Source: Escherichia phage PSD2002. From it: 64,000 nt of DNA. The translations under genes and the position numbers were made by a program. Numbering within the stretch: the stretch's first letter is position 1; each line of letters begins with the position of its first letter. Shown here in pieces: positions 1-64,000 of this stretch. The notes beneath the pieces were generated by a model. The model had not been told where the DNA came from and made no database searches. It saw nothing but the letters and a program-made list of their open reading frames with translations. Location of the stretch: sequence record OK335775.1, one strand, 5' to 3'.

Positions 1-378
1 AAAGACTTCGATTTTGTAGCCGTGACTGCGCTAGGCGACTCAATTGATGCACTGCTGAATAGACAATTCAATTTGAATGCTTTGTTCCCTGGCGCATTCA
101 AGGAGATTCTGATGTGTGGTCATTCAGAATCAAAAGAAGACCTCTTCATAAGAGCTAAAAATACGTACGGTAAACGTATTAAGTTTTATGTTGATGATTT
201 GGCTCACCACTGTGATGCTGCATCTAATGTTCTCATGGATATCCAAGTTTATTGGTTAGCTCGTGGTGAACGTGACTTTAAACCTAATTTAGCCGTAAAG
301 GTTAATTCATGGGACGATATCGCAGCAATCGAATCCCTTCGTAATAATGCCGCAGTTGAATGGATTGCTCGAGGTTAA
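1..378 (+). CDS. hypothetical protein, 5'-truncated at window edge
   Basis: Frame 1 open from nt 1 to stop at 376-378; track ORF 22..378 starts at a non-ATG codon, so the true start is probably upstream of the window. Confidence 0.4.
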   Translation, partial: KDFDFVAVTALGDSIDALLNRQFNLNALFPGAFKEILMCGHSESKEDLFIRAKNTYGKRIKFYVDDLAHHCDAASNVLMDIQVYWLARGERDFKPNLAVKVNSWDDIAAIESLRNNAAVEWIARG

Positions 379-379
379 T

Positions 380-658
380 ATGTTTGTAGTTCATACAATT
401 TCAGACTATGGTCCTACCACTACAATGGATTATGGTCATGTAAACCAGTTTATTCGTCATGTGAATCATGATTACTCATTTGATGTAAATCCGGCTAAAG
501 ACCATCCTGTTTGGCGCGAATGCGTCGAACAGGGATTCATTTATGTCCACTTTATGTCCAAGTTCAAATCTGATGGGCGAATGAGATTTGTGTTCTCTTA
601 TCATAAGCGATTAGACTTGCTTTTGGCTGATGTGGCTTATAATAGAATCCATGACTAA
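380..658 (+). CDS. hypothetical protein
   Basis: Track ORF 347..658 trimmed to the ATG at 380 (MFVVHT...) preceded by GAGG; no recognisable motif. Confidence 0.45.
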   Translation: MFVVHTISDYGPTTTMDYGHVNQFIRHVNHDYSFDVNPAKDHPVWRECVEQGFIYVHFMSKFKSDGRMRFVFSYHKRLDLLLADVAYNRIHD

Positions 659-668
659 TGAGGTGATT

Positions 669-2195
669 ATGATTTTAGATATTTTAAACGAAATTGCTGC
701 TATTGATTCTACTAAAGCTAAAGAAGCCATTATTGCTCGTGAAAAGGACAATGAGCTTCTGAAACGTGTTTATCGTATGGCTTATACCCGTCGTCTGAAC
801 TACGGTATTAAAAAGTGGCCAGAACCTGGATTTACATCTCAATCCTTTGGTATGATTACTCTTGAAGACCTTCTTGATTTCGCTGAATTCACATTAGCCA
901 CACGTAAGATTACGGGTAATGCGGCTATTGAAGAACTGGCTCAAATCATTGCTGATGCTAAGGCCCCGGATGCCGAGGTATTACGTCGTGTAATGATGCG
1001 CGACCTTGAATGTGGTGCATCGATTTCTATTGCTAACAAGGTTTGGAAAGGTTTAATCCCTGAACAACCGCAGATGTTGGCGAGTTCTTATGATGAAGCT
1101 TTGATTAAGAAAAATATTAAATGGCCAGCGTTTGCTCAATTAAAAGCTGATGGTGCTCGTTGTTTTGCCGAAGTTCGTAACGATGGTGTGACATTCCTTA
1201 CTCGTGGTGGTAATGAATACCAAGGGCTTCATCTTTTAGCTGCTGAATTAATGGCGATGACCGAAGAAGCTCGTCAACGTCATCCTAATGGCGTTATGAT
1301 TGATGGCGAATTAGTTTACCATACTCCTAAAGTTGAACCTAAAGCATCTAATGATTTGTTTAGTATGTTTGACGAGGAACTTCCTGAATTAAGTAAAGCC
1401 AAAGAATTCCAAACTGTCGCCGATCGTTCTACGTCAAATGGATTGGCTAATAAGGCTCTTCAAGGAACTATCACCCCATCTGAAGCCGCTGGTATGGTAT
1501 TACAGGCATGGGATTATGTCCCACTGGATGTCGTGTATTCTGAAGGCAAAATTAAAGGTGATAAGTATGATGTACGCTTTACAGCCTTAGAACTTATGGT
1601 GGCTCATAATGTCGTATTGCATGGCACAACGCGTGTTGAAGCTATCGAAAACCAGTGGGTTAATAATCTTGAAGAAGCTAAAGTCGTTTATAAGAAATAT
1701 GTCGACCAAGGTCTGGAAGGTATTATCCTTAAGAACATGGACTCCTACTGGGAAAACCGCCGTTCTAAGAATCTTATCAAGTTCAAAGAAGTAATCGATA
1801 TTGCTTTAGAAGTGGTGGGTTATTATGAACACTCGAAGGACCCTAACAAACTAGGCGGTGTTGAATTAGTATCACATTGTCGTCGAATTACAAGTGACTG
1901 TGGTTCAGGCTTTAAAGATACCACCCATAAGAAAGATAAATCAGGTAAAAAAGTATTGATTCCATTGGAAGACCGTCCTGATTTAGACCGTGAACTTCTT
2001 ATGAAACAAGCTCGTGAAGGTAAGTTGATTGGACGTATTGCTGACTGTGAATGTAATGGTTGGGTTCATTCTAAAGGACGTACTGATACTGTAGGTATTT
2101 TCCTTCCAATTATTAAAGGTTGGCGTTTCGATAAAACAGAAGCTGATACATTTGAAGATGTATTCGGGTCGTGGGACCAAACAGGACTTAATTAA
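669..2195 (+). CDS. 30: ATP-dependent DNA ligase (T4 gene 30 homolog)
   Basis: Track ORF 630..2195 trimmed to MILDILNEIA...; KADG adenylation motif (AFAQLKADGARCFAEV); N-terminus and overall sequence closely resemble T4 DNA ligase as recalled. Confidence 0.9.
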   Translation: MILDILNEIAAIDSTKAKEAIIAREKDNELLKRVYRMAYTRRLNYGIKKWPEPGFTSQSFGMITLEDLLDFAEFTLATRKITGNAAIEELAQIIADAKAPDAEVLRRVMMRDLECGASISIANKVWKGLIPEQPQMLASSYDEALIKKNIKWPAFAQLKADGARCFAEVRNDGVTFLTRGGNEYQGLHLLAAELMAMTEEARQRHPNGVMIDGELVYHTPKVEPKASNDLFSMFDEELPELSKAKEFQTVADRSTSNGLANKALQGTITPSEAAGMVLQAWDYVPLDVVYSEGKIKGDKYDVRFTALELMVAHNVVLHGTTRVEAIENQWVNNLEEAKVVYKKYVDQGLEGIILKNMDSYWENRRSKNLIKFKEVIDIALEVVGYYEHSKDPNKLGGVELVSHCRRITSDCGSGFKDTTHKKDKSGKKVLIPLEDRPDLDRELLMKQAREGKLIGRIADCECNGWVHSKGRTDTVGIFLPIIKGWRFDKTEADTFEDVFGSWDQTGLN

Positions 2196-2365
2196 TGAAA
2201 GTTTATTTAGAAACAATTGTTATATCAAATACAAATATTACGGCAGTCTCTCAAATCATCCTTGATTTTGAGGACGAAATAGCTTTTGCCGATTTTAAAG
2301 ATACCTTCGATGGCTATGAAAAAGGCCCTACATTCGAAGTATATCGTACACTGTTACCACTTTAA
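2195..2365 (+). CDS. small hypothetical ORF (56 aa), start overlaps ligase stop (TAATG)
   Basis: ATG overlapping ligase TAA; open frame MKVYLETIVISN... ends just inside a terminator hairpin; below the 60-aa track cutoff. Confidence 0.3.
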   Translation: MKVYLETIVISNTNITAVSQIILDFEDEIAFADFKDTFDGYEKGPTFEVYRTLLPL

Positions 2366-2384
2366 GGCCTTCGGGCCTTTTCTG
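2364..2384 (+). terminator. stem-loop AAGGCC-TTCG-GGCCTT followed by a short T-run
   Basis: Perfect 6-bp stem with tetraloop, then TTTTCT, between ligase operon and alt1. Confidence 0.45.
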
Positions 2385-2415
2385 GCATAAATAAGGTTAT
2401 TAAAGAGGAATTATT

Positions 2416-4311
2416 ATGTCCGAACAATTGAATGAGGTATTTGATGGTGATATAAATTTATCTGCTGTCAATTTAAACCCTAAACTTAAAGTCCCACAGA
2501 TTTGGAATATAAAGGCTGAAGGTAACGAGAACCTTGTTGCCCGCATGGTTTCATATACTTCCGAAGGCGATGTAATTCGTCAGGTTAAGCCTGGTGACAA
2601 GTATGTTCATGTCGTTTTAATGAGCCTATCGGCTAAAGGTTCTCCTGCCGAACTCAAAGGTGGATTAGGTACCAATCCTATTTCCGCTATTCGTTCTATA
2701 TTTGATATCGTCTATGAACAGGTCAAGGCCCTTCGTATGGACGCTGTTATGTTCCGTTTTCCTACCAAGAAAATGAAAGGGCAGGAAAAAGCTATACAGA
2801 GGGTATTGGCTAAATTAATAGCCTCTAGAGCAGGCGGACAGTTTAAAGTTCTTGATGCCTTGTATCAATTCACCGGTAAGCATTCGTATGTTTTTATCTA
2901 TCGTAAAAATAAAAATATAGAATCTATAAATGGTATTCCTAATATTAATTTAGAATTGTATACTAAAGTCGAATCTGAAGTCGGTGACGTGTATGTTTCA
3001 AAGAAAACAGGCGAAGATGTTACCAAACTAGAAGCTATAGCTAAGTCCATAGACGAAATAGAAAAATCACGTTCTGATAAAACTGTTATAACCAAAACAA
3101 AGGTTTCTAAACGTGCTGCTATCAATGCTTTATATCCTACAGCAGAGCCTACAGGATTGAGTAAATTTTCGGCAGAGCACAAAAAAGCTTATGCAGATTA
3201 TTCTGCTACTAGTTCCGTTCATTCTTCTGAAGATTCTAAAGAAAGCCAAATAGCTTTAGCCAGTAATAAAATATTAAAAGACACCTCTAAAGAAATGGCA
3301 GAATATTTGGATTATATTTTTAACGGTGTTAATCCATCATTTGAAGTAGACGAGCGCAAACTTAAACTAATTGCTGATATAAAGTTTGCTTTAGAGGCAT
3401 CAGATTCTTTAGATAAATCTAATAGTGTCATAGAGGCTTTAAAATCAGGTAAATCTCATGTAGACATTCTTAGACTAGTCGCTGCGGCCCTTTTAGATGA
3501 TTCAGTTAAAGGTACTTGGGCTAGAGAATCTAAAATCAAGGAAGTAATAAAATCCTTAGTAGCAGTTTATACAAAATCTATCCAACCGTTGTTTAAGATA
3601 TCTGATAATCCTAATTTATCCAAACCTCAAGAAGAGGCAGTCAAAAAGTATACTCGTGGCGGCTACAACCATATAAACAACTTTTTGCTAGGTAAAACAG
3701 ATACCACCGATGAAATGATAAAAATGATTGGTGAGTTGGATTCTACATTTGAAAATGGTACAAAACTTCCTAAAGGAACCATAGTGTATCGTTCTCAGAT
3801 AATGCCTACCGAAATGGCTTTGAATTCTATAAAACATAAGGTGATGTATCTTCCTATTTTTGCATCAACTTCATTGGCTCCTAATATTTTCGGTGAAATG
3901 GGTCATGCTCAATCCAACTTAGACCCTGAAGCTCTTTCTAGCGATATAGATAGTAATCTTGAAGACACCATTAAAAGTGCGACCGGAAGTGCTAGAGATA
4001 CCATTAAGCTAGGGTTAATTATTAAAGGTGCTGATAAAATTAAGGTTATTGTGCCCGGTGACTTGGCTAATTGGTCTACAGAAACCGAAGTAATTCTTCC
4101 TCGTGGGGTTATGCTTAAGATTAATAAAGTATACGGTGCTTCCAAGGGACCTATGGGTTCAATTGGTAAATATGTTTTAGTGGAATGTGAAGTTGTAGCT
4201 ACCGAGCAAATCACAGAGGAAGATTCATATAGCACCGGATTCTCGTTTGGAAATTATGATAGAATTATGTATGAAGATTCTATGGAAAAATTAGCAAATT
4301 TATTTAAATAG
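2416..4311 (+). CDS. alt: Alt-like ADP-ribosyltransferase, paralog 1 (631 aa)
   Basis: RBS AAAGAGGAA; N-terminal block shared with the next two ORFs; C-terminal ART signatures VYRSQ, FASTSL, ETEVILPRG; position next to gene 30 as in T4. Confidence 0.8.
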   Translation: MSEQLNEVFDGDINLSAVNLNPKLKVPQIWNIKAEGNENLVARMVSYTSEGDVIRQVKPGDKYVHVVLMSLSAKGSPAELKGGLGTNPISAIRSIFDIVYEQVKALRMDAVMFRFPTKKMKGQEKAIQRVLAKLIASRAGGQFKVLDALYQFTGKHSYVFIYRKNKNIESINGIPNINLELYTKVESEVGDVYVSKKTGEDVTKLEAIAKSIDEIEKSRSDKTVITKTKVSKRAAINALYPTAEPTGLSKFSAEHKKAYADYSATSSVHSSEDSKESQIALASNKILKDTSKEMAEYLDYIFNGVNPSFEVDERKLKLIADIKFALEASDSLDKSNSVIEALKSGKSHVDILRLVAAALLDDSVKGTWARESKIKEVIKSLVAVYTKSIQPLFKISDNPNLSKPQEEAVKKYTRGGYNHINNFLLGKTDTTDEMIKMIGELDSTFENGTKLPKGTIVYRSQIMPTEMALNSIKHKVMYLPIFASTSLAPNIFGEMGHAQSNLDPEALSSDIDSNLEDTIKSATGSARDTIKLGLIIKGADKIKVIVPGDLANWSTETEVILPRGVMLKINKVYGASKGPMGSIGKYVLVECEVVATEQITEEDSYSTGFSFGNYDRIMYEDSMEKLANLFK

Positions 4312-4319
4312 GATAGATT

Positions 4320-6401
4320 ATGACCCAATTAAATGAAGTGTTCGAGTCCGAAGGTACACTGCCTGTTGTGAACTTGAACCCAAAACTTAAAGTACCTCAG
4401 ATTTGGAAGATTGGAGACGCGGAGTCTCAGTTAGTAGCACGTATGGTATCCTACGCTTCTGAAGGTGATGCTATTAAACAAGTTAAAATGGGTGATAAAT
4501 ATGCCCACGTTATCCTTATGAGCCTTTCAGCTAAAGGTTCGCCTGCCGAACTTAAAGGCGGCTTAGGCCCTACTCCTGTAGATGCGATTAATACTATTTT
4601 TGATGTGGTTTATGACCAAGTTAAAAAGCTTCGTATGGATGCCGTGATGTTCCGTTTCCCTACTAAGAAAATGAAAGGTCAAGGCCCTATCGTTCAACGG
4701 ATTATCCAACGTTTGGTAGCACAGAAAACCGGTGGACGTTTTAAAGTGGTTCCGGCTATGTACCAATTTACCGGTAAACATACTTACATCCTGGTAGTTC
4801 GTAAACAAGCTGATATAGAAGATATCAAAGGTATGCCTGGAATTAATGCTGAATTGTATACTAAGGTAGATTCTGATGTCGGTGAAGTTTATATTTCTAA
4901 AAAAGAAGGCGTACAGGTTACTAAAGAAACTGCTATCGCCGGTAGTATTGCTAAGGTTGAAGAACGTCGCACTGATAAAATGGTTATAACCAAGACTAAG
5001 ATTTCTCGACGTGCTATTGCAGCAAGTCAATCGTTAGAATCTTATCGTAATGAAAGTGGGCTGTTTAAGAAATATGAAGCTACTGCAGTAGATTTTAATA
5101 AACCGGCAACAGTTCCATTAATCCCTGAGGCCCAGGAAATGGTCACTAATAACAATTCTCCTGCGGCTAAAAATAAGGTTGCTAATATAGTAGCTGAAGG
5201 CACTGCTGAAGAATTGCATTACGACTATAAATTGTTCCCACTTCACGGTATTGGTGAAATCCAAGAGAAAATTAAAGAGAAAATTCTTACAGCTATCAAA
5301 AATGAACCTTTGACATCTGTTAAAGCCCTGGAAAAATATGCCTCTACCATTAATACCATTTTCGAAGAATATAAAGGCGAGTGGCTGGCTATCCATAACA
5401 GAACTCGTAAAGGCCAACCTGACGACGTCTGGAATGAATTAACCGAGTCCAAGTGGAAAGCAGCCAAGACTAAGTTCATTAAAAAACGTGTGTATAGTTT
5501 TGCTGGCGTAGGTGGTGGTATTATGGTCGATATTACTATTGCTCGTGAGGGCTCTAAATATACCCCATCACAAAAGCGCGGCATCAGAGAATATTGTGGT
5601 TCAGGATATACAGACATAAATAATCTTCTTTTAGGACGTTATAATCCCCAGAACTATGAGGTTATGAGCGAAAAAGATATCGAATCTGCAGTTAATAATT
5701 TGGATTCCGCTTTTGAAAATGGCGACCGTATACCAGAAGGCATCACAGTTTATCGTGCACAGAGTATGACTGCTCCTATATACGAAGCACTAGTTAAAAA
5801 TAAAGTGTTCTATTTCAGAAATTTTGTATCTACTTCTTTAACTCCTATAATTTTCGGACGTTTTGGTGTTACACACGCTGGTATTGGTCTTTTAGAACCG
5901 GAAGTTCGCAACGAATTGACAGTTGATAAAAATGAAGAAGGAATAACTATTAATCCTAATGAAATAAGAGCGTATAAGGAAAATCCCGATTACGTTAAGG
6001 TTCAAATAGGATGGGCCATTGATGGGGCTCATAAAGTTAATGTCGTATATCCAGGAAATCTCGGAATAGCAACTGAAGCCGAAGTTATTCTACCGCGTGG
6101 ATTAATGGTCAAAGTTAATAAAATAACAGATGCTTCTAATAATGATGGAACAACATCTAGTAATACAAAACTCATCCAAGCTGAAGTTATGACAACAGAT
6201 GAGCTTCAAGAATCTGTTGTATATGATGGTGATGTACTAATGGAAACCGGCGAGTTGGTCGTATATCAAGATGACTTCGATACTTCCGAAAGCCCCTTAT
6301 CTTTTGATTCATTTGTTAAATCTACACGGTTTGATGTACTGCCTCTTTTGGCTTCATGCATAGACCTCTATGACATCCCAGAAAAATTCATCCAAGGGTA
6401 A
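4320..6401 (+). CDS. alt: Alt-like ADP-ribosyltransferase, paralog 2 (693 aa)
   Basis: Same conserved N-terminal block; C-terminal VYRAQ, FVSTSL, EAEVILPRG; central region unrelated to paralogs 1 and 3. Confidence 0.8.
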   Translation: MTQLNEVFESEGTLPVVNLNPKLKVPQIWKIGDAESQLVARMVSYASEGDAIKQVKMGDKYAHVILMSLSAKGSPAELKGGLGPTPVDAINTIFDVVYDQVKKLRMDAVMFRFPTKKMKGQGPIVQRIIQRLVAQKTGGRFKVVPAMYQFTGKHTYILVVRKQADIEDIKGMPGINAELYTKVDSDVGEVYISKKEGVQVTKETAIAGSIAKVEERRTDKMVITKTKISRRAIAASQSLESYRNESGLFKKYEATAVDFNKPATVPLIPEAQEMVTNNNSPAAKNKVANIVAEGTAEELHYDYKLFPLHGIGEIQEKIKEKILTAIKNEPLTSVKALEKYASTINTIFEEYKGEWLAIHNRTRKGQPDDVWNELTESKWKAAKTKFIKKRVYSFAGVGGGIMVDITIAREGSKYTPSQKRGIREYCGSGYTDINNLLLGRYNPQNYEVMSEKDIESAVNNLDSAFENGDRIPEGITVYRAQSMTAPIYEALVKNKVFYFRNFVSTSLTPIIFGRFGVTHAGIGLLEPEVRNELTVDKNEEGITINPNEIRAYKENPDYVKVQIGWAIDGAHKVNVVYPGNLGIATEAEVILPRGLMVKVNKITDASNNDGTTSSNTKLIQAEVMTTDELQESVVYDGDVLMETGELVVYQDDFDTSESPLSFDSFVKSTRFDVLPLLASCIDLYDIPEKFIQG

Positions 6402-38458: not shown

Positions 38459-38489
38459 TATTTATAGCAAAAAAGGGCCGAAGCCCTTT
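38459..38489 (-). promoter_or_regulatory. terminator hairpin after wac followed by late promoter TATAAATA for gene 13
   Basis: Reverse strand reads AAAGGGC-TTCG-GCCCTTTTTT, then TATAAATA (complement of 38459-38466) 21 nt before the gp13 ATG. Confidence 0.55.
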
Positions 38490-49615: not shown

Positions 49616-51574
49616 TTATATTGTAATTGGTTCCAACTCTATAGTTGTGTACTGAGGACGAAGGTCATCTTCAAATACGATTAAAGAACCGTCTTTGGTA
49701 AAGATGTTGTCTTGGTCTGGCCCTGCATAAAGTTCAATAGACTGGACTTCAAAACGATCGGAAGTAAGGCCTATTGCGGCGATATCCCAGAAAATAAAGT
49801 CCGAGTAATAATCAATTTCGCCAATAACATAGTAGACCGATTGGTCTGCAGGCGCTGCCATTTTATCAAAGTCATCTCCGGTGTAAGGTTGGATGTATTG
49901 GTTTTCAATTACATCGCCAGGTCGGAAAGGACCTATAACCATTTTACCATCGCCTCGTTCGTCTTTATCTGTGGCAACAATACGTACGTTGTAAGATTTA
50001 ACAACATCAGATACGTTTGTTGGGACGAACTCAAATTCACTAGAAGTTACAGAACGGTTGGTGTATTGATTATAGTATTTAATACCCGCTTCAGGTGTTT
50101 TGAAGAAGTTTAATACCTCGCGAACCATTGTTACCGTAGCCGAAGAGCCAAGGATACTGTGGTCTGCATTATCAATATAAGTCAGCATTTTAGACTTGGC
50201 AAATCCGTGGTTGAATATTTCAACTTCGTTAATATAATAACGGTCTATTTGGGAAAGGATTTGGGCCGTTAACCATTGTTCGGATTCCTGTAATTTGTTC
50301 AGTGCATATGAAACCTTAATTTTATGCTTCAAGAACAAGTAGTCAGGAGAAATAACCGAAGGGGTAATAGGTGCCAAGTTAAATTCTGAAAGATAATTTT
50401 GGATATCTTCGCGTTGAACCGCAGTCAAATACAATCCTGATTTAGGTTTAATGGTAACAAAGGCATAACCTGGTTTATTTGGGTCTGTAAAGGTTTGTAC
50501 TGCTTGTACAATAGAACCAAATCGCTCCGAAACGAATGTATCATAATCTGTACCGGTTACAGCACGCATCTGGGCTTCACGTTTAACTACAGCAAGTTCA
50601 CGAATACGTTCAATATCTTCAGGGTCACCACCACCGTCAGCACCTACATAATCCGGGTTTTCATCGTAGTTTTCTGTAATTTTTTCAACCGTAATATATG
50701 CCAAAGAATCCGCATAACTAAAGTCCACTGCCCCGTTAGCAACTTCACCATCTGTACGAAGGTATTCTATAACAATGGTAGCATCTTTAACAGGTTTTAA
50801 ACCACCAATATAATTAGCTTCTAATACCCCACCTGCAACTGATTTTTCAGCAACACCTTCACCAAAGAAGAATTCAGTATTACCATCTACGGTTTCACGC
50901 ATATAGTAAATTGTTGATGTACTACCAGCATGAACCATGGATTTATTAGTCCAGTTAGTCCATTCTGCGCCATCGACATAAAGTTTAACTTCCTGTCTAT
51001 CAATATCCGGGTCACGAATAAGAATAGGAGTTTTAGGGTCATACTTAAGTTCAGTACGGATAATACGACCTTGTGCTAAAGATACGATAGGAAGATATTG
51101 GTTATTAACATCACGTACGGCAATAACGTTTTCCGTGGTAACAAAAGAATACGGGTCTGCTGAAGTATCACGGGCATAGGCCAAGAATTTAGTACCACGT
51201 GGGATACGAATATTCTTTTCATTCAGGGCTTGGGTACAGGTCAACATGATACTTGTTTTGGCTGCTGATTTAGAACTTGGCAAATAGCCGTTATCCTGTG
51301 CAGCCTGGACGACGGAGGAACGCAAGTTAGCAGTACCGATGAAAGATTCATATACCGCGGTATTAGCAAACTGCTGCATATACAGGGTGTTGTAAGCTAA
51401 CATGTCAATCAGGATATTCATTCGCGAACCAACGAAATCGTAATCCTTAAATTCGTCCTGGCTAGAAAGCCAATCGATAATATTCTTTTTAATCTCTTCA
51501 AACGTAGCTCCCACAAATACTTTTGGGATAGCGTTAACGGTTCTTGTTAATTGGTAATTCGTAGGAGTAGCCAT
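49616..51574 (-). CDS. 6: baseplate wedge gp6
   Basis: 652 aa; N-terminal region (NYQLTRT.NAIP..FVG.TF.EIK...DYDF.GSR.N.L.D.LAYNTLY.QQF) closely resembles T4 gp6. Confidence 0.9.
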   Translation of the reverse strand: MATPTNYQLTRTVNAIPKVFVGATFEEIKKNIIDWLSSQDEFKDYDFVGSRMNILIDMLAYNTLYMQQFANTAVYESFIGTANLRSSVVQAAQDNGYLPSSKSAAKTSIMLTCTQALNEKNIRIPRGTKFLAYARDTSADPYSFVTTENVIAVRDVNNQYLPIVSLAQGRIIRTELKYDPKTPILIRDPDIDRQEVKLYVDGAEWTNWTNKSMVHAGSTSTIYYMRETVDGNTEFFFGEGVAEKSVAGGVLEANYIGGLKPVKDATIVIEYLRTDGEVANGAVDFSYADSLAYITVEKITENYDENPDYVGADGGGDPEDIERIRELAVVKREAQMRAVTGTDYDTFVSERFGSIVQAVQTFTDPNKPGYAFVTIKPKSGLYLTAVQREDIQNYLSEFNLAPITPSVISPDYLFLKHKIKVSYALNKLQESEQWLTAQILSQIDRYYINEVEIFNHGFAKSKMLTYIDNADHSILGSSATVTMVREVLNFFKTPEAGIKYYNQYTNRSVTSSEFEFVPTNVSDVVKSYNVRIVATDKDERGDGKMVIGPFRPGDVIENQYIQPYTGDDFDKMAAPADQSVYYVIGEIDYYSDFIFWDIAAIGLTSDRFEVQSIELYAGPDQDNIFTKDGSLIVFEDDLRPQYTTIELEPITI

Positions 51575-51575
51575 T

Positions 51576-53639
51576 TTAATTCCTAGTAGGAGATTCTAAA
51601 CAAGGTATGCAAATGGAAAGGGATGGAAATGCAATCGTTAAACCGAATATTCCCAGCATCTTATTAATCCATTGTACCACCTTACTTAAGGATAATGTTG
51701 ATATTTGGTTATACATTGATTTGCACAAGTCTTTCATTGACCTGGAACCATCAGTAAATTCGTGATATAAAGATTTTGCTTTAGTTACTGAGTTCTCGTA
51801 TATAACCATGATATCATCTACAGTAGCTCCGAGCATACCGAGAAGTTCTTCCATTTGAGCCACAATAGGAAGTTTTTTGAATTCTTCTAAAGCCATATCT
51901 AATACATCAGAAACGGAGGTTTGACTTTCGGTAATAGAGTTCTTAATCTGATTATATTTATTCTTTAAAAGTTCGAGTGCAGCTTCAGCTTGTGCTAATG
52001 CGGCTTCCTTCTGAGCAGTTAGCTCGTCTGTAACTTTTTCGTACATTCCTGAAAGATATTGTTTAAATTCAATAGCTTGTTTTTGTACTTCTTGCTTTTT
52101 GAGCTTAATCTCATTCCACAGATTGAGTGCCTGGGTTTTAAGAGCCTCAATCATTGCATAAGCTTCGTCTATTTTCTGGTCTACCTTTTCCATAACCATT
52201 TGATAAACATCTGATGCTGTGAATCCTGGAAAGTTACCGCTCATTATCATGTCCAGTGGTTTAACTTGCTTCATCATTTCCTTGACCGCAGTAATAACGC
52301 TCCAAACTGGGTTCGGAACTATAGGAGGCATACTCCATATTTGAGCGAGGTCTACACACAGTTTTGATAATGCAACACCAGCCATAAGCAATTGAGACCA
52401 GGCCCAGTCATACAAGTCTGTAATTGCATCAATAAGGTCACGCGAATACATCTTGACGCGTTCAACCGAATAATCGTATGCAGACCCAATGGCAGAATAA
52501 ATCGATTGGATGGTTTCTTCTAAATTAAAGTTTTTCCATGCTTCTTTTAATTTCTGTACACCATCACCTGAAGTGCAGAGGTCTTCTAGGTCAATAGTCA
52601 TGCCCATAATAGTAATCGAGGGTAAAAAGCTTTTAAGTAAGTCCCACCCACCGCCAACAATATCCAAGACCTGTGATATGGCATCTTTAAATGCAAGAAA
52701 AGCCATTTGCTGAACATATTGACACATAGCAACAGCTGAGTTGCCTAGCTCTTCCATTGCGACCGATAGCTTACTATAACCAGAATCGAAGAATTTTTCC
52801 CAATCGGTTCCACCAGATGATGGCCATCCAGGGAGCATATCCCAATATAATTTGAATGAATTCCTAGATGTATTCCATGAAGCCATAATCGCATTGGTCA
52901 ATCCGTTGTAAGGGAATTCCGCTGTAAAAGGAACACAGCTTATTGCCCTGGCTCGCCCGGTTATTTCTGGCGGTAAAGACCCGATGGATACCGGTCCCGG
53001 AATCGGAGTTCCTGGGATACTCATATCAACATCTAGATTTAATACCAGTCCAACATAAGTACAAGGTTTTGTCTCATAGTACTTCAAATAAGCCCTGCGG
53101 GAGTCACCAAGGCCGTTAAAGTTGACATACATATGATAATCAGCCGTAACTGCAATCATCGTCCTGGGGTCCATTCTGGGGCCTTGTGATGTCCATACAC
53201 CGCCACAGTTTTCGATGCGATACATATCATATTCAATAGATGTTTTATACAATACAGATTTTGATAAATCAGCGCCGTACCAATCATTACCGGGCAAAAG
53301 AGTTGCACCAATCGATTCTACATAATTTTCTAAATCCAATTGCGTAATAAAGAATATTCCGAGTTTAGCACACCAGATACCTTGACTTGTTCCATCTTCC
53401 GGTGGGGGAGGTGCAGGAAAAGTTTCGGACTTATTACCAAATGGATTTTGTGTGTATAAATGTGTAGCTAGTGGAATAATCTCGGTATCCCATTCAACGC
53501 CATTCCCAGGTTGAATAAAAGCACCTGTTGGGTTATATAATTCCCATTTAACCCGGCGATATTCACCGGGTCCTACTGCGTCATCACAGGGACTTGTTAC
53601 AGTCCCTACCACTTCATCAACTTTATCGTAGTAATTCAT
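51576..53639 (-). CDS. hypothetical protein of unknown family (687 aa from ATG; 695 aa if GTG start) between gp5 and gp6
   Basis: Long uninterrupted ORF tightly packed in the baseplate operon; C-terminal coiled-coil and hydrophobic tail; no motif I recognise; T4 has only small 5.x ORFs here. Confidence 0.6.
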   Translation of the reverse strand: MNYYDKVDEVVGTVTSPCDDAVGPGEYRRVKWELYNPTGAFIQPGNGVEWDTEIIPLATHLYTQNPFGNKSETFPAPPPPEDGTSQGIWCAKLGIFFITQLDLENYVESIGATLLPGNDWYGADLSKSVLYKTSIEYDMYRIENCGGVWTSQGPRMDPRTMIAVTADYHMYVNFNGLGDSRRAYLKYYETKPCTYVGLVLNLDVDMSIPGTPIPGPVSIGSLPPEITGRARAISCVPFTAEFPYNGLTNAIMASWNTSRNSFKLYWDMLPGWPSSGGTDWEKFFDSGYSKLSVAMEELGNSAVAMCQYVQQMAFLAFKDAISQVLDIVGGGWDLLKSFLPSITIMGMTIDLEDLCTSGDGVQKLKEAWKNFNLEETIQSIYSAIGSAYDYSVERVKMYSRDLIDAITDLYDWAWSQLLMAGVALSKLCVDLAQIWSMPPIVPNPVWSVITAVKEMMKQVKPLDMIMSGNFPGFTASDVYQMVMEKVDQKIDEAYAMIEALKTQALNLWNEIKLKKQEVQKQAIEFKQYLSGMYEKVTDELTAQKEAALAQAEAALELLKNKYNQIKNSITESQTSVSDVLDMALEEFKKLPIVAQMEELLGMLGATVDDIMVIYENSVTKAKSLYHEFTDGSRSMKDLCKSMYNQISTLSLSKVVQWINKMLGIFGLTIAFPSLSICIPCLESPTRN

Positions 53640-53640
53640 A

Positions 53641-55428
53641 TTAACCGACCTGTACGTTGCCACCAGATACTTTAGCTAATGAACCGCCATCCATATGCAC
53701 AGTATTTGATGCGTTTAAATTAATGTTCGTCGCTGCAAAATTTAAATCTTGTTCGACATTTACATCCATATTTTGAGCATTGATTGTGGCCTTTTGTTTA
53801 ACGCTTATATCTGCATTCTGGTTGACATTAACTGTTGTATCTTTTTCAACCGTAATATATGCTTCTTGTTCAACAGTTATATCAGCAGTACCCATAATAA
53901 CTATTTTAACATTTCCTTTAACAAGCAGAGTTCCATTACCTTCTACAGTTTTGGTTTCATTCCCTCGAATATGAATGCTTTCAGACCCATCAGTTTGACG
54001 GCGCACGTTTGCCATATTATAATAGGTTTCATCGCCACCAACGTTGACTTTATTATTACCACCAACATAAGTATTTGAATCGCCTTGGGTCATATAATAA
54101 CCATCGGCTACCGTCTTAGAAGTTTTACGTCCATCAGGAGCAACTTCTTCATAACTACCGGTAGGATGGATTAAACGGTATCGTTCTTGCCCTGGGGTAT
54201 TATCGAATTCTTGGATATGCCCGCCTTCAGTTTGCATGGTTTGGACATATGGATATTCGCCTTTATAACTAGAATCAGGTTCTTTAAAAAGAATCCTTGT
54301 GTCTTCTGGAGTCCACGGGTCGGCAGGGTCTGAATTTGTAGGGGCCACAAAGGTTTGAATCATTCTATACGAACGGCCATTAAATGACCTTTCTTTAGGG
54401 GCCATAATACCATATGATTCCATGTTACCTGTGAGGATAATCATTGACACCCTTGATGCGCGACCTTTAGTTTGGTTAAACCATACCGAATTACGGGCTT
54501 CTTCAAATGCCTTTTTATAATCGCCTATTAACATTGCACTAAGCATTCCACGGAATTTAGCAAGCCCACCTAATCCCATTTGGAAAGCCATGTTTTCAAG
54601 AGCCATTTGTCTCGAACGGTTTTCTTTATTATAAACAGGACCTACAACACTATGCAGGCCTATATCATTTTGGACTTTTTTAAGGTCGTCTTGGAATAAT
54701 TTAGAAACCTCGTCCATTGATATTGCACCAGGGTTACCTTTAACTTCTCGTCCTACCTGATTAGATAATATTTTGTTTATTTGATTCATATCTCTAATAG
54801 GTTGTGGCGTAATAAGGTGACCTATACCTATAGTAGGATAACCTTCGGTATCCCAATATACCTTCAGTCTAAGCCCTTCATCACGATGAAGCATGTTTTC
54901 TATTGTGAAATTAGGATTATCATCAGGCTTGACTTGGCTCAAATCCAAACCGTCTGGGTTAATACCTACATCGGTGTTTGCATCTTGTATTACGTTGGAA
55001 GTGGCATCATATCCAACTTCACCACCTCGGTTTAAAGCCGCGGCATCATTACCTAAATAAAGTGGGTATTGACCTGTCGGGTCGCTAAAACCTTCATTAG
55101 GATTAGCCTTTTGTCTTGAAGCGGAACCGTATGTACCAAGGACCAGTCCGTTTAATTTCCACTTATCAAGAAAATGCCCATAAACCTGTGTACCAGGAAC
55201 CATACCGGTCATGGCGGTTTGAATACCTGAAACAGAGGCTGAAGATGTAGGCATTAATACCGACATCCATGGTAAATCTTCTGTACGAAGGCCTTTTACT
55301 GGACCTTGCACTTTTTCGTATGGATGCATGCCCCATACGCGCACGCGTACTCGGCCTTGTTGGAGTGGGTCCATTCGGTCTTCAACTACGCCGACGAACC
55401 AACTGACATTATCAGACATGTTAATCAT
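53641..55428 (-). CDS. 5: baseplate central spike / cell-puncturing lysozyme gp5
   Basis: 595 aa; N-terminal OB domain (NVSWFVGVVED..DP...GRVRVRV.G.HP) resembling T4 gp5; lysozyme domain (TIENMLHRDEGLRLKVYWDTEGYPTIGIGHL); C-terminal beta-helix repeats. Confidence 0.9.
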   Translation of the reverse strand: MINMSDNVSWFVGVVEDRMDPLQQGRVRVRVWGMHPYEKVQGPVKGLRTEDLPWMSVLMPTSSASVSGIQTAMTGMVPGTQVYGHFLDKWKLNGLVLGTYGSASRQKANPNEGFSDPTGQYPLYLGNDAAALNRGGEVGYDATSNVIQDANTDVGINPDGLDLSQVKPDDNPNFTIENMLHRDEGLRLKVYWDTEGYPTIGIGHLITPQPIRDMNQINKILSNQVGREVKGNPGAISMDEVSKLFQDDLKKVQNDIGLHSVVGPVYNKENRSRQMALENMAFQMGLGGLAKFRGMLSAMLIGDYKKAFEEARNSVWFNQTKGRASRVSMIILTGNMESYGIMAPKERSFNGRSYRMIQTFVAPTNSDPADPWTPEDTRILFKEPDSSYKGEYPYVQTMQTEGGHIQEFDNTPGQERYRLIHPTGSYEEVAPDGRKTSKTVADGYYMTQGDSNTYVGGNNKVNVGGDETYYNMANVRRQTDGSESIHIRGNETKTVEGNGTLLVKGNVKIVIMGTADITVEQEAYITVEKDTTVNVNQNADISVKQKATINAQNMDVNVEQDLNFAATNINLNASNTVHMDGGSLAKVSGGNVQVG

Positions 55429-56030
55429 TAGAGGGCTTTCTCCATTTCTCTAATTAAAGCGGAAACAAAGGACTCGATGTCATTAGGGTCTATAATCTTT
55501 ATTTCGCGCTTATATTCATTTTTACGAATGGCGTCCTCGTAAATATCTACTGCAGCCAAAGGACCTTCATATTGAGGATAACGTTTTTCTGTATCACCTT
55601 TATCGTACCAAGTATAAGGATTTTCCGGAGTATTTACTAGATTCCAGAATTTCTCACCCTTTTCATTGACATGATAAAGGACTTGGTTTCCGCCTGCAGT
55701 AGCATAACGTTGAATAGCTGCTTGATACGCAGATTCTTGGCCTGTAATCCAGCCGTAATAAGGGTCATATACGTTATTACACATCAATAAAACCCAATAT
55801 AATTGCACGTTACCATAAAGTTGATGGGCTAATTCTTCTGGACGAGGGGCCCCACTGATATAATATGTTTTAAGTGTATAATTTTTAGCCACTTTATCAA
55901 AATATTCTTTATAGTTTCTAAATATATCAGTCATCGGTACGCTCAGTACATCGGCATCAGTTAATGAGCCGGAATCTGGCTTGACTGTTTTTGATTCGTA
56001 ATTTATAGGATCGAAAAATGAGAAGAGCAT
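55428..56030 (-). CDS. 53: baseplate wedge gp53
   Basis: 200 aa (T4 gp53 196 aa); synteny; late promoter upstream. Confidence 0.7.
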   Translation of the reverse strand: MLFSFFDPINYESKTVKPDSGSLTDADVLSVPMTDIFRNYKEYFDKVAKNYTLKTYYISGAPRPEELAHQLYGNVQLYWVLLMCNNVYDPYYGWITGQESAYQAAIQRYATAGGNQVLYHVNEKGEKFWNLVNTPENPYTWYDKGDTEKRYPQYEGPLAAVDIYEDAIRKNEYKREIKIIDPNDIESFVSALIREMEKAL

Positions 56031-56075
56031 AGTGCCTCCGAGTATAAATAATATTAATATTTATAAGGAGGCACT
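56031..56075. promoter_or_regulatory. symmetric divergent late promoter region: TATAAATA on each strand flanked by 9-bp inverted repeat AGTGCCTCC/GGAGGCACT
   Basis: TATAAATA at 56043-56050 (+, gp4) and complement of 56058-56065 (gp53); the inverted repeat supplies GGAGG RBS to both genes. Confidence 0.6.
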
Positions 56076-63094: not shown

Positions 63095-63358
63095 ATGGAT
63101 AATTATGGTGAATTGTTTAATTTCTTTATGAAATGCGTTCCGGAAGAATTTGGTGCTACAGTTAACGATATTAAAGTTATCGGTCCTGAACACCCGGTGT
63201 ATGAAACCTATGCAGTAATGGGTAATGAAGATGGACAGTGGTATACAATTAAAGTTGTGATTAATATGTTCTCAGCTGAAGGTTACGCCAAATCGTCTAC
63301 CAAAGTTTACCATGGTAATGATTTTGATGCAGAAAATTATTTCAATAATATGAAATAA
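63095..63358 (+). CDS. hypothetical protein (87 aa)
   Basis: Track ORF 63080..63358 begins at GTG; ATG at 63095 follows GAAGGAGAG. Confidence 0.5.
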   Translation: MDNYGELFNFFMKCVPEEFGATVNDIKVIGPEHPVYETYAVMGNEDGQWYTIKVVINMFSAEGYAKSSTKVYHGNDFDAENYFNNMK

Positions 63359-63361
63359 AAC

Positions 63362-63397
63362 GTTTACATGGGCTCATGATTAAGATATTATGAGCCC
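63362..63397 (+). promoter_or_regulatory. early promoter (GTTTACA, 17-bp spacer, TATTAT) with 8-bp inverted repeat across spacer and -10
   Basis: GGGCTCAT at 63370-63377 pairs with ATGAGCCC at 63390-63397. Confidence 0.45.
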
Positions 63398-63416
63398 ATA
63401 ATTTGAGGAGAACATA

Positions 63417-63815
63417 ATGAATATCGAAGATAAAGAAATGCAAGAGTTGTATAATTCATTAACACCTGAACAACAAAAATATGCCAAAGAACTAGAGAAA
63501 GCTCTTACTTTCAACTTGGCAAAAACTGATTGGGCCGCGATGTATGAAGAAAAAACTAGATTAGAAATTGAAGCTGCTGAGAGAAATGAATGGGTTGTCG
63601 AAACCAAGATTTCTGATGGTGGTTGCTCTGTTGAGGTGTCAGCTGTAGTTAAAGGTACCCATGGCGAAAAATCATGGGGCTGGCATAATGAAGCAAACAA
63701 ATGTATTGTTCTCTCAACGTCAAAAACTTATGGGCAAAGGGCTCCTGTATCCAAAGCTATTATTAAGCAAGCTCAATGGGAAGCCAATGAAATTTGCCTC
63801 GCAAAAATGAAATAA
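63417..63815 (+). CDS. hypothetical protein (132 aa)
   Basis: Track ORF with ATG and GAGGAG RBS; no recognisable motif. Confidence 0.5.
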   Translation: MNIEDKEMQELYNSLTPEQQKYAKELEKALTFNLAKTDWAAMYEEKTRLEIEAAERNEWVVETKISDGGCSVEVSAVVKGTHGEKSWGWHNEANKCIVLSTSKTYGQRAPVSKAIIKQAQWEANEICLAKMK

Positions 63816-63819
63816 AAAT

Positions 63820-63855
63820 GTTTACAACCCTCAGAGGACAGGGTATAATGTCCTC
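63820..63855 (+). promoter_or_regulatory. early promoter (GTTTACA, 17-bp spacer, TATAAT) with 7-bp inverted repeat flanking the -10
   Basis: GAGGACA at 63834-63840 pairs with TGTCCTC at 63849-63855. Confidence 0.45.
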
Positions 63856-63891
63856 ATGGATTATAAATCTTAATCAACTGAAGGAAATACT

Positions 63892-64000
63892 ATGAACACT
63901 TTAAAGAAAATCGTTGAATTCATCCGTTCTAAACTGGGTACCGCAATGACTCAGAACCTGTCAATCGAAGACCAATACACCAAAGCGGCTTCTACCCTGA
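63892..64000 (+). CDS. hypothetical protein, 3'-truncated at window edge
   Basis: ATG at 63892 after GAAGGAAA; frame open to the end of the window ([16 protein letters not shown]...). Confidence 0.4.

Follow-up and report, generated by a model that had tools for sequence, protein, structure and literature searches.

A 687-residue open reading frame between gp5 and gp6 of Escherichia phage PSD2002 probably encodes a non-PAAR spike-tip protein

When a phage meets its host, the spike tip is the first of its parts to contact the envelope and pass through it. What spike tips contribute had remained an open question until Mattenberger, Leiman, Belin and colleagues, in a 2025 bioRxiv preprint, solved T4 gp5.4 as a PAAR spike tip and showed that it matters for fitness and for the infection of deep-rough lipopolysaccharide mutants (PMC12407873). 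Phages RB43, RB16, and Lw1 were found to lack gene 5.4; instead, orf205w occupies the 5.1-5.4 locus and encodes a product of ~690 residues, of which residues 1-220 make up an alpha/beta part while the rest is helical (PMC12407873). RB43 ORF205w was proposed as an unusual spike tip because gene 5.4 is missing, because of synteny, and because a baseplate cryo-electron microscopy map at 17.7 Å shows a larger density at the tip, into which a low-confidence AlphaFold model could be fitted (PMC12407873). Here, we describe an open reading frame (ORF) that fills the interval between gp5 and gp6 in a stretch of 64,000 nt of Escherichia phage PSD2002 (record OK335775.1; this whole stretch is referred to as the window, and all coordinates are window positions). 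The ORF (51576-53639, minus strand) probably encodes the spike-tip protein of PSD2002, a 77-kDa non-PAAR replacement for T4 gp5.4, because it is a late gene directly after gp5, is orthologous to ORF205w, is paired with a special gp5 end, and occurs in a genome that lacks a PAAR gene. While the tip proposal for RB43 ORF205w was known already, the ortholog presented here comes from a phage much closer to T4.

The Locus

The ORF comprises 687 residues plus a stop codon and is flanked on the same strand by gp5 (53641-55428; Pfam domains Gp5_OB, Phage_lysozyme, and Gp5_C) directly upstream and by the gene for the baseplate wedge subunit gp6 (49616-51574; five gp6 domains) directly downstream. Both junctions are tight. 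At the gp5/ORF junction (GGT TAA T ATG), the gp5 stop codon (53641-53643) is separated by a single base from the ATG of the ORF, and at the ORF/gp6 junction (AAT TAA A ATG) the stop codon of the ORF (51576-51578) is likewise followed by a 1-base gap and the gp6 ATG at 51574. The longest reading frame in the ORF listing starts from a GTG (51576-53663, minus strand) and encodes 695 residues, while the in-frame ATG at 53639 yields 687. The ATG is taken as the true start, since M1 is conserved to at least 90% in the family alignment and the homologs open with MNY or MDY; the GTG start was rejected, as its extension (53640-53663) overlaps the final eight gp5 codons and is not backed by conservation within the family. 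The reading frame is thus as reported in a preliminary description of this DNA, which had noted a 687-residue ORF (695 residues from the GTG) filling the entire gp5-gp6 interval. A chance ORF, a frameshift artefact, or a fusion of small ORFs, also considered, is ruled out by conservation over the full length: homologs occur in 215 phage records, 213 of which cover at least 80% of the ORF at identities between 31 and 100%. This equally disposes of the concern, raised in the same description, that a sequencing error might conceal several small ORFs of the 5.x type.

Further upstream, the gene for baseplate wedge subunit gp53 (55428-56030, minus strand) is the first gene of a late transcription unit, with gp53 and gp7 forming the outer flanks of the gp5-ORF-gp6 block. 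A copy of the T4-type late promoter consensus TATAAATA lies just upstream of gp53 (56058-56065, minus strand). The next copy on this strand is found only at 38466 and none lies inside the gp53-gp7 unit, so that gp53-gp5-ORF-gp6-gp7 is best regarded as one late unit, in line with the previously suggested co-transcription with late baseplate genes. Candidate terminators or promoters that might split the operon from within, terminator-like sites included, are no commoner than expected by chance. In the whole window, TATAAATA occurs 18 times as compared to ~7 expected copies; most of these lie at 15-38 kb on the minus strand, which fits a leftward-transcribed block of late structural genes.

A plus-strand copy of TATAAATA at 56043-56050 points to gp4/gp2 and faces away from the minus-strand copy at 56058-56065, only 8 bases apart; together (56043-56065), the two copies have the appearance of closely spaced, divergent late promoters. 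Promoters are also annotated at the equivalent spot in phage Pm5461.

Family Membership and Distribution

The preliminary description had recognized no motif in the ORF. Indeed, no Pfam family reaches the cut-off, but the family itself is already on record: PHROG 5296 ('unknown function') matches the ORF end to end (E = 0, 1192 bits, profile positions 1-684 of 685). RB43 ORF205w (YP_239181) aligns in BLASTP with 43% identity over 687 residues (560 bits), and in view of this identity across the whole length the ORF is considered its ortholog. The closest proteins, all 'hypothetical proteins' with 99.3-99.9% identity, stem from Escherichia phages Bp7, WG01, E33, LHE83, and CJ20 as well as from Shigella phage SP18. 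Hosts of the 215 phage records are Klebsiella (113), Escherichia (26), Enterobacter (20), Cronobacter (18), Citrobacter (13), Proteus (7), and others. Among 5.8 billion clustered proteins, 56 relatives were found, none of which carries a functional name and all of which measure ~665-765 residues, save for one truncated member (580 residues). A profile search of 1.84 billion representatives returned just eight full-length family clusters at 50% identity, plus fragments, and no remote homologs with other architectures, such as an N-terminal domain fused to effectors in the manner of PAAR proteins. Judged by these searches, this is a narrow family of constant architecture.

The gene order gp53-gp5-ORF-gp6 is kept in Dhakavirus (Bp7_0254), Pseudotevenvirus (RB43 ORF205w, GAP161_189), Slopekvirus (KP27_211), and Bragavirus (Pm5461 gp237). 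Other carriers include SP18 of the genus Gaprivervirus and KM16 of the genus Moonvirus, two genera of Tevenvirinae. The comparison of this interval across T4-like genomes, which had been put forward as a check, accordingly finds the ORF at a constant position after gp5 and with a matching gp5 tip (see the following section). No paralog of the ORF, gp29 included, lies within the window, and in the close relative Bp7 a separate gp29 tape measure is encoded next to gp27, gp28, and gp48.

Some observations bear on the mobility of this region. At the window ends (1-5236 and 63229-64000), the DNA is only 92-95% identical to that of Bp7, yet the ORF protein is 99.9% identical; in SP18, which belongs to another genus (Gaprivervirus), the ORF is 99.4% identical. 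Taken together, these values suggest that, within the Dhakavirus/Gaprivervirus group, the ORF module was exchanged recently or the genome is a mosaic. In T4 (locus 4197-4619), the gp5-gp6 interval also contains the GIY-YIG homing endonuclease segC, and in GAP161 a Seg-like endonuclease is located between gp2 and gp4. This neighbourhood is an insertion hot spot for mobile genes, which may have aided the exchange of tip modules. The record of Aeromonas phage phiAS4 places gene 5.4 and gp6 on one strand and gp53 and gp5 on the other, with gp6 broken into several short coding sequences labelled 'baseplate wedge subunit'. A local inversion, together with frameshifts or with mistakes in the annotation of this record, probably underlies the arrangement.

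The gp5 Tip and the Missing PAAR Gene

The gp5 proteins were compared in a nine-phage alignment (and in a three-way version), with residues 1-500 taken as the body and the last 60 residues as the tip. The window gp5 is most similar in its body to T4 and Klebsiella phage PKO111 (65-66% identity), as compared to 45-47% for the ORF-carrying phages. For the tip (53644-53823, minus strand; ending in ...DGGSLAKVSGGNVQVG) the relationship is reversed: it is of the RB43 rather than the T4 type, its identity being 42-50% in comparison with ORF carriers and 10-18% in comparison with 5.4 carriers (17-18% for the T4 and PKO111 tips). Between the ORF-type and 5.4-type groups as a whole, identity amounts to 48% in the body and 12% in the tip. 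Tips of the ORF type are 15 residues longer than that of T4 and end in D(S/G)GxLxK(I/V)(T/S)GxxVQVG, while T4-type tips (T4, PKO111, phiAS4) end in DGSRI(D/N)(I/V/L)G. By this alignment, the window gp5 is a mosaic of a T4-like body and an RB43-like tip.

Moreover, the final 71 residues of the window gp5, used as a tblastn query, retrieved 215 records, the organism and host breakdown of which is that of the 215 ORF records. For comparison, T4 gp5.4 is present in 1422 records. The coupling of gp5 tip and ORF also persists at the edge of the family: the metagenomic member P0056 (31% identity) follows a gp5 ending in ...LAVFTGGTVSVG, i.e. a GGTVSVG-type end, and the likewise metagenomic P0059 follows a gp5 of 389 residues that ends in ...IFTGGTVVVG. 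The latter gp5 (locus 219-1388) has an OB domain and a beta-helix but no lysozyme domain. By sequence, the unit of inheritance is hence the gp5 end plus the ORF gene, as would be expected of two surfaces that bind each other.

In the metagenomic phage with P0056, a gp25-like gene (PF04965; locus 2542-2967) separates the family member from gp6; the gp25 gene of Bp7 is located elsewhere and adjoins gp26.

The suggestion that no PAAR-like ORF is visible here also stands. Homologs of T4 gp5.1, gp5.3, and gp5.4 are absent from the window, and neither tblastn nor phmmer (--max; best E 0.6) detected a gp5.4 homolog in a whole-genome equivalent composed of Bp7 1-112,500 plus the window; the Bp7 annotation likewise lists no 5.4. 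A PAAR domain hidden in the ORF itself was considered and discarded, with no Pfam PAAR match at E up to 0.1 and a BLASTP E value of 0.47 against gp5.4. Furthermore, the window gp5, as seen in the aligned tip sequences, has no HxH apex motif near its end.

Architecture of the Predicted Protein

An AlphaFold2 model of the full-length protein, based on an alignment of 52 sequences that was also used for residue conservation and Kyte-Doolittle hydropathy, reached a mean predicted local distance difference test score (pLDDT) of 86.5 and a predicted template modelling score of 0.77. All segments described below are encoded on the minus strand. Residues 1-200 (53040-53639) form an alpha/beta domain that folds on its own at pLDDT >90 and carries the motifs YRR, WxTE, NDWYGADLSK, and ENxGG along with the invariant C18 and C193. 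Comparison of the domain model with solved structures returned no matching fold, and the domain thus appears to adopt a new fold; it is also the part proposed to cap the gp5 tip. The subsequent residues 201-293 (52761-53039) comprise a proline-rich segment and a strand (234-241) with the near-invariant C235. Since the model confidence of residues 205-292 drops once the C-terminal part is removed and is only regained in the full-length model, this segment probably packs against the C-terminal part.

The all-helical region (residues 294-664; 51648-52760) has a conserved core at 321-340, 381-480, and 641-660. It includes a long alpha-helical hairpin (residues 475-575, with helices H475-529 and H538-575; 51915-52217), where conservation is at its lowest within the protein; a weak resemblance to tape-measure proteins, coiled coils, and Hbl-B is confined to this hairpin. 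The protein ends in a conserved hydrophobic segment (residues 660-682, KMLGIFGLTIAFPSLSICIPCLE; 51594-51662) that contains the near-invariant C677. Within it lies the only transmembrane-like stretch of the family (residues 660-678, family-mean Kyte-Doolittle 1.66), while residues 673-682, the C-terminal strand in which C677 sits, are predicted to be beta strand and not helix. The coiled-coil C-terminal third and the hydrophobic tail noted in the preliminary description correspond to the helical part with its long hairpin and to this segment. C18 and C193 are found in all 52 sequences, C235 and C677 in 50 of 52. The four cysteines might possibly form a metal or structural cluster that ties the C-terminus to the N-terminal part. 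No catalytic or toxin domain was found in the protein.

Proposed Role and Alternative Explanations

If the ORF encodes the spike tip, as we consider probable, the protein would bind to the blunt end of the gp5 trimer, probably by its conserved and independently folding N-terminal domain, which the four-cysteine cluster (possibly a metal site) would hold together with the C-terminal strand. The helical body and the long alpha-hairpin would then project ahead of the needle, and upon sheath contraction the protein would be driven through the outer membrane as the first of all phage parts. Subsequently, it may be released into the periplasm together with the gp5-gp27 complex, by analogy to T4, for which such a release after contraction has been seen, and to the P2 spike, which behaves likewise. 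There, the amphipathic helices and the hydrophobic C-terminus may contact the membrane or other envelope components. Such a membrane activity is deemed far less probable than the tip role itself. An even more elaborate scenario would be a new class of tip device, in which a new-fold domain held by a four-cysteine (metal) site clamps a dedicated gp5 end and a first-injected amphipathic helical machine of 370 residues remodels or enters the envelope, for example, by nucleating an inner-membrane conduit or by engaging a periplasmic or membrane partner. We regard this as a rather doubtful, speculative extension; if true, an envelope-remodelling tip would constitute an entry step that T4 lacks.

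Several points weigh against a spike-tip role. Both the place of the protein in the virion and its mechanism are inferred. No virion proteomics of a family member was found in the literature, and the publications on KP15/KP27 and Eap-3 hold no virion proteome data on the family. The virion proteome of the related Morganella phage MP1 contains no protein from the ORF position, but it is uninformative in this regard because gp5 is also missing from the list. (The ValerieMcCarty phages are 5.4-type Jiaodavirus and thus outside the ORF-type group.) The RB43 map at 17.7 Å was calculated with imposed C6 symmetry, its authors call the assignment 'possible', and co-production of ORF205w with a gp5 beta-helix fragment failed (PMC12407873). 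Furthermore, a monomer in which no three-fold pseudo-symmetry was detected would have to sit on the gp5 trimer, and the cysteine cluster as well as any membrane activity are conjecture only.

Strict co-inheritance with the gp5 tip would be equally expected of an assembly factor, that is, a chaperone or scaffold that folds or trimerises the longer RB43-type gp5 end and is absent from the finished particle. According to annotation, T4 late operons do include assembly catalysts such as gp51 and gp57A, and incorporation of the ORF protein into the virion is not confirmed by proteomics. However, the RB43 particles show an extra tip density that no other known gene explains, the genome would be left without any tip protein although its gp5 end has no HxH apex motif, and 687 residues with strong full-length conservation are a lot for serving a 60-residue segment, all of which renders a non-virion role unlikely. 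Another conceivable scenario places the protein elsewhere in the virion, for example, in the lumen of hub or tube as a second tape-measure or ejection protein that is expelled into the periplasm and assists in forming the DNA conduit, with something else acting as tip. This would agree with the conserved hydrophobic C-terminus and with the best hits that the family profile obtains outside the family (E 3e-9 to 3e-4, helical region only), which are mostly phage tape-measure proteins: of the eight weak hits, four carry PF10145 and the majority have tape-measure PHROG matches. The ORF itself matches tape-measure PHROGs with E 7e-4 at best and without a significant stretch, while family member P0057 reaches E 4e-8. 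In profile-profile comparison (hhalign), however, the probability is just 75% over 83 columns that cover only the variable, poorly conserved hairpin 490-572, as is typical of amphipathic-helix composition. As the phage moreover has its own gp29 tape measure, and as an ejection protein would leave both the tracking of the outermost 60 gp5 residues and the missing PAAR gene unexplained, this explanation is judged improbable.

One could finally envisage a late gene of accessory function, such as superinfection exclusion or an interaction with the host, that has nothing to do with the spike and lies by chance in a recombination-prone interval; after all, the T4 interval holds dispensable ORFs and segC and is thus a site of gene turnover. 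Such a gene would hardly be expected to retain its position, its architecture, and its conservation over the whole length at identities of 31-100% in at least seven genera, nor to occur always right after a gp5 with matching tip and never elsewhere, and we consider this highly improbable. Together, the RB43 tip density and the missing PAAR gene are better explained by a tip role than by any of these rivals. The preliminary description had also viewed the product as a spike- or hub-associated virion protein, possibly an ejected effector or membrane-interacting component. Orthology, gp5-tip pairing, and the lack of a PAAR gene speak for the spike-associated part, while the effector and membrane part gains no support either way, the only features with a bearing on it being the one conserved hydrophobic C-terminal stretch and the weak likeness of the hairpin to tape-measure proteins.

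Implications

What is new here is, as far as sequence can tell, a member from Tevenvirinae of a recently proposed and poorly characterised kind of spike-tip protein. It would represent a second solution for the tip that is unrelated to PAAR, seven-fold larger, and present in at least 215 sequenced phages, many of which are Klebsiella, Enterobacter, and Cronobacter phages considered for therapy. The tip would furthermore be an exchangeable module consisting of gp5 end and tip gene, and the sharp module boundary inside gp5 could serve as a design rule for tip swaps between T4 and ORF-type phages, by which the contribution of the tip to penetration, host range, and spike fate becomes directly testable.

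Comparison with Known Systems

With tape-measure proteins (PF10145, tape-measure PHROGs), the ORF protein shares long amphipathic helices and the weak profile matches at residues ~360-670. Unlike these proteins, it has no tape-measure Pfam domain, its gene position differs, and it is not the sole length-determining gene beside the hub and tube-initiator genes. A homology to tape-measure proteins was therefore rejected, the weak similarity confined to the hairpin being judged compositional, i.e. a shared amphipathic-helix character and not membership. Foldseek comparison to ClyA-family toxins and type III secretion system translocators (Hbl-B 2nrj, YaxB 6ek8, IpaB 3u0c) gave nothing below E 0.1. 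Since prefoldin, HlyD, and designed helical bundles score equally well or better in the same list, the likeness to these proteins probably reflects generic helical-hairpin geometry.

The apexes of P2 gpV and phi92 gp138 with their iron-binding HxH motif are comparable in that they also provide a non-PAAR finish of a contractile-tail spike; however, they are trimeric and lie within the spike chain, whereas the ORF protein is encoded by a separate gene next to a gp5 without HxH. T4 gp5.4 and other PAAR tips (PDB 4KU0, 4JIV; PF05488) have in common with it the gp5-gp6 slot, the late operon, and the presumed role of capping the blunt beta-helix end, which co-inheritance suggests for the ORF protein, and its conserved cysteines could stand in for the PAAR metal site. 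Unlike PAAR tips, it shows no sequence or fold similarity to them, is seven times larger, lacks their small conical beta fold with pseudo-three-fold symmetry, has no modular fusion family, and needs a different, longer gp5 end.

The closest counterpart is RB43 ORF205w, which besides its full-length identity of 43% shares the position after gp5, the domain order, the four cysteines, the type of gp5 C-terminus, and a genome without gene 5.4. The AlphaFold model of ORF205w in the preprint is of low confidence (PMC12407873), as compared to a pLDDT of 86.5 for the ORF model presented here. Unlike RB43, PSD2002 belongs to the Tevenvirinae (Dhakavirus/Gaprivervirus group) and has a T4-like gp5 body, and the module is therefore not limited to the 'pseudo T-even' RB43 group.

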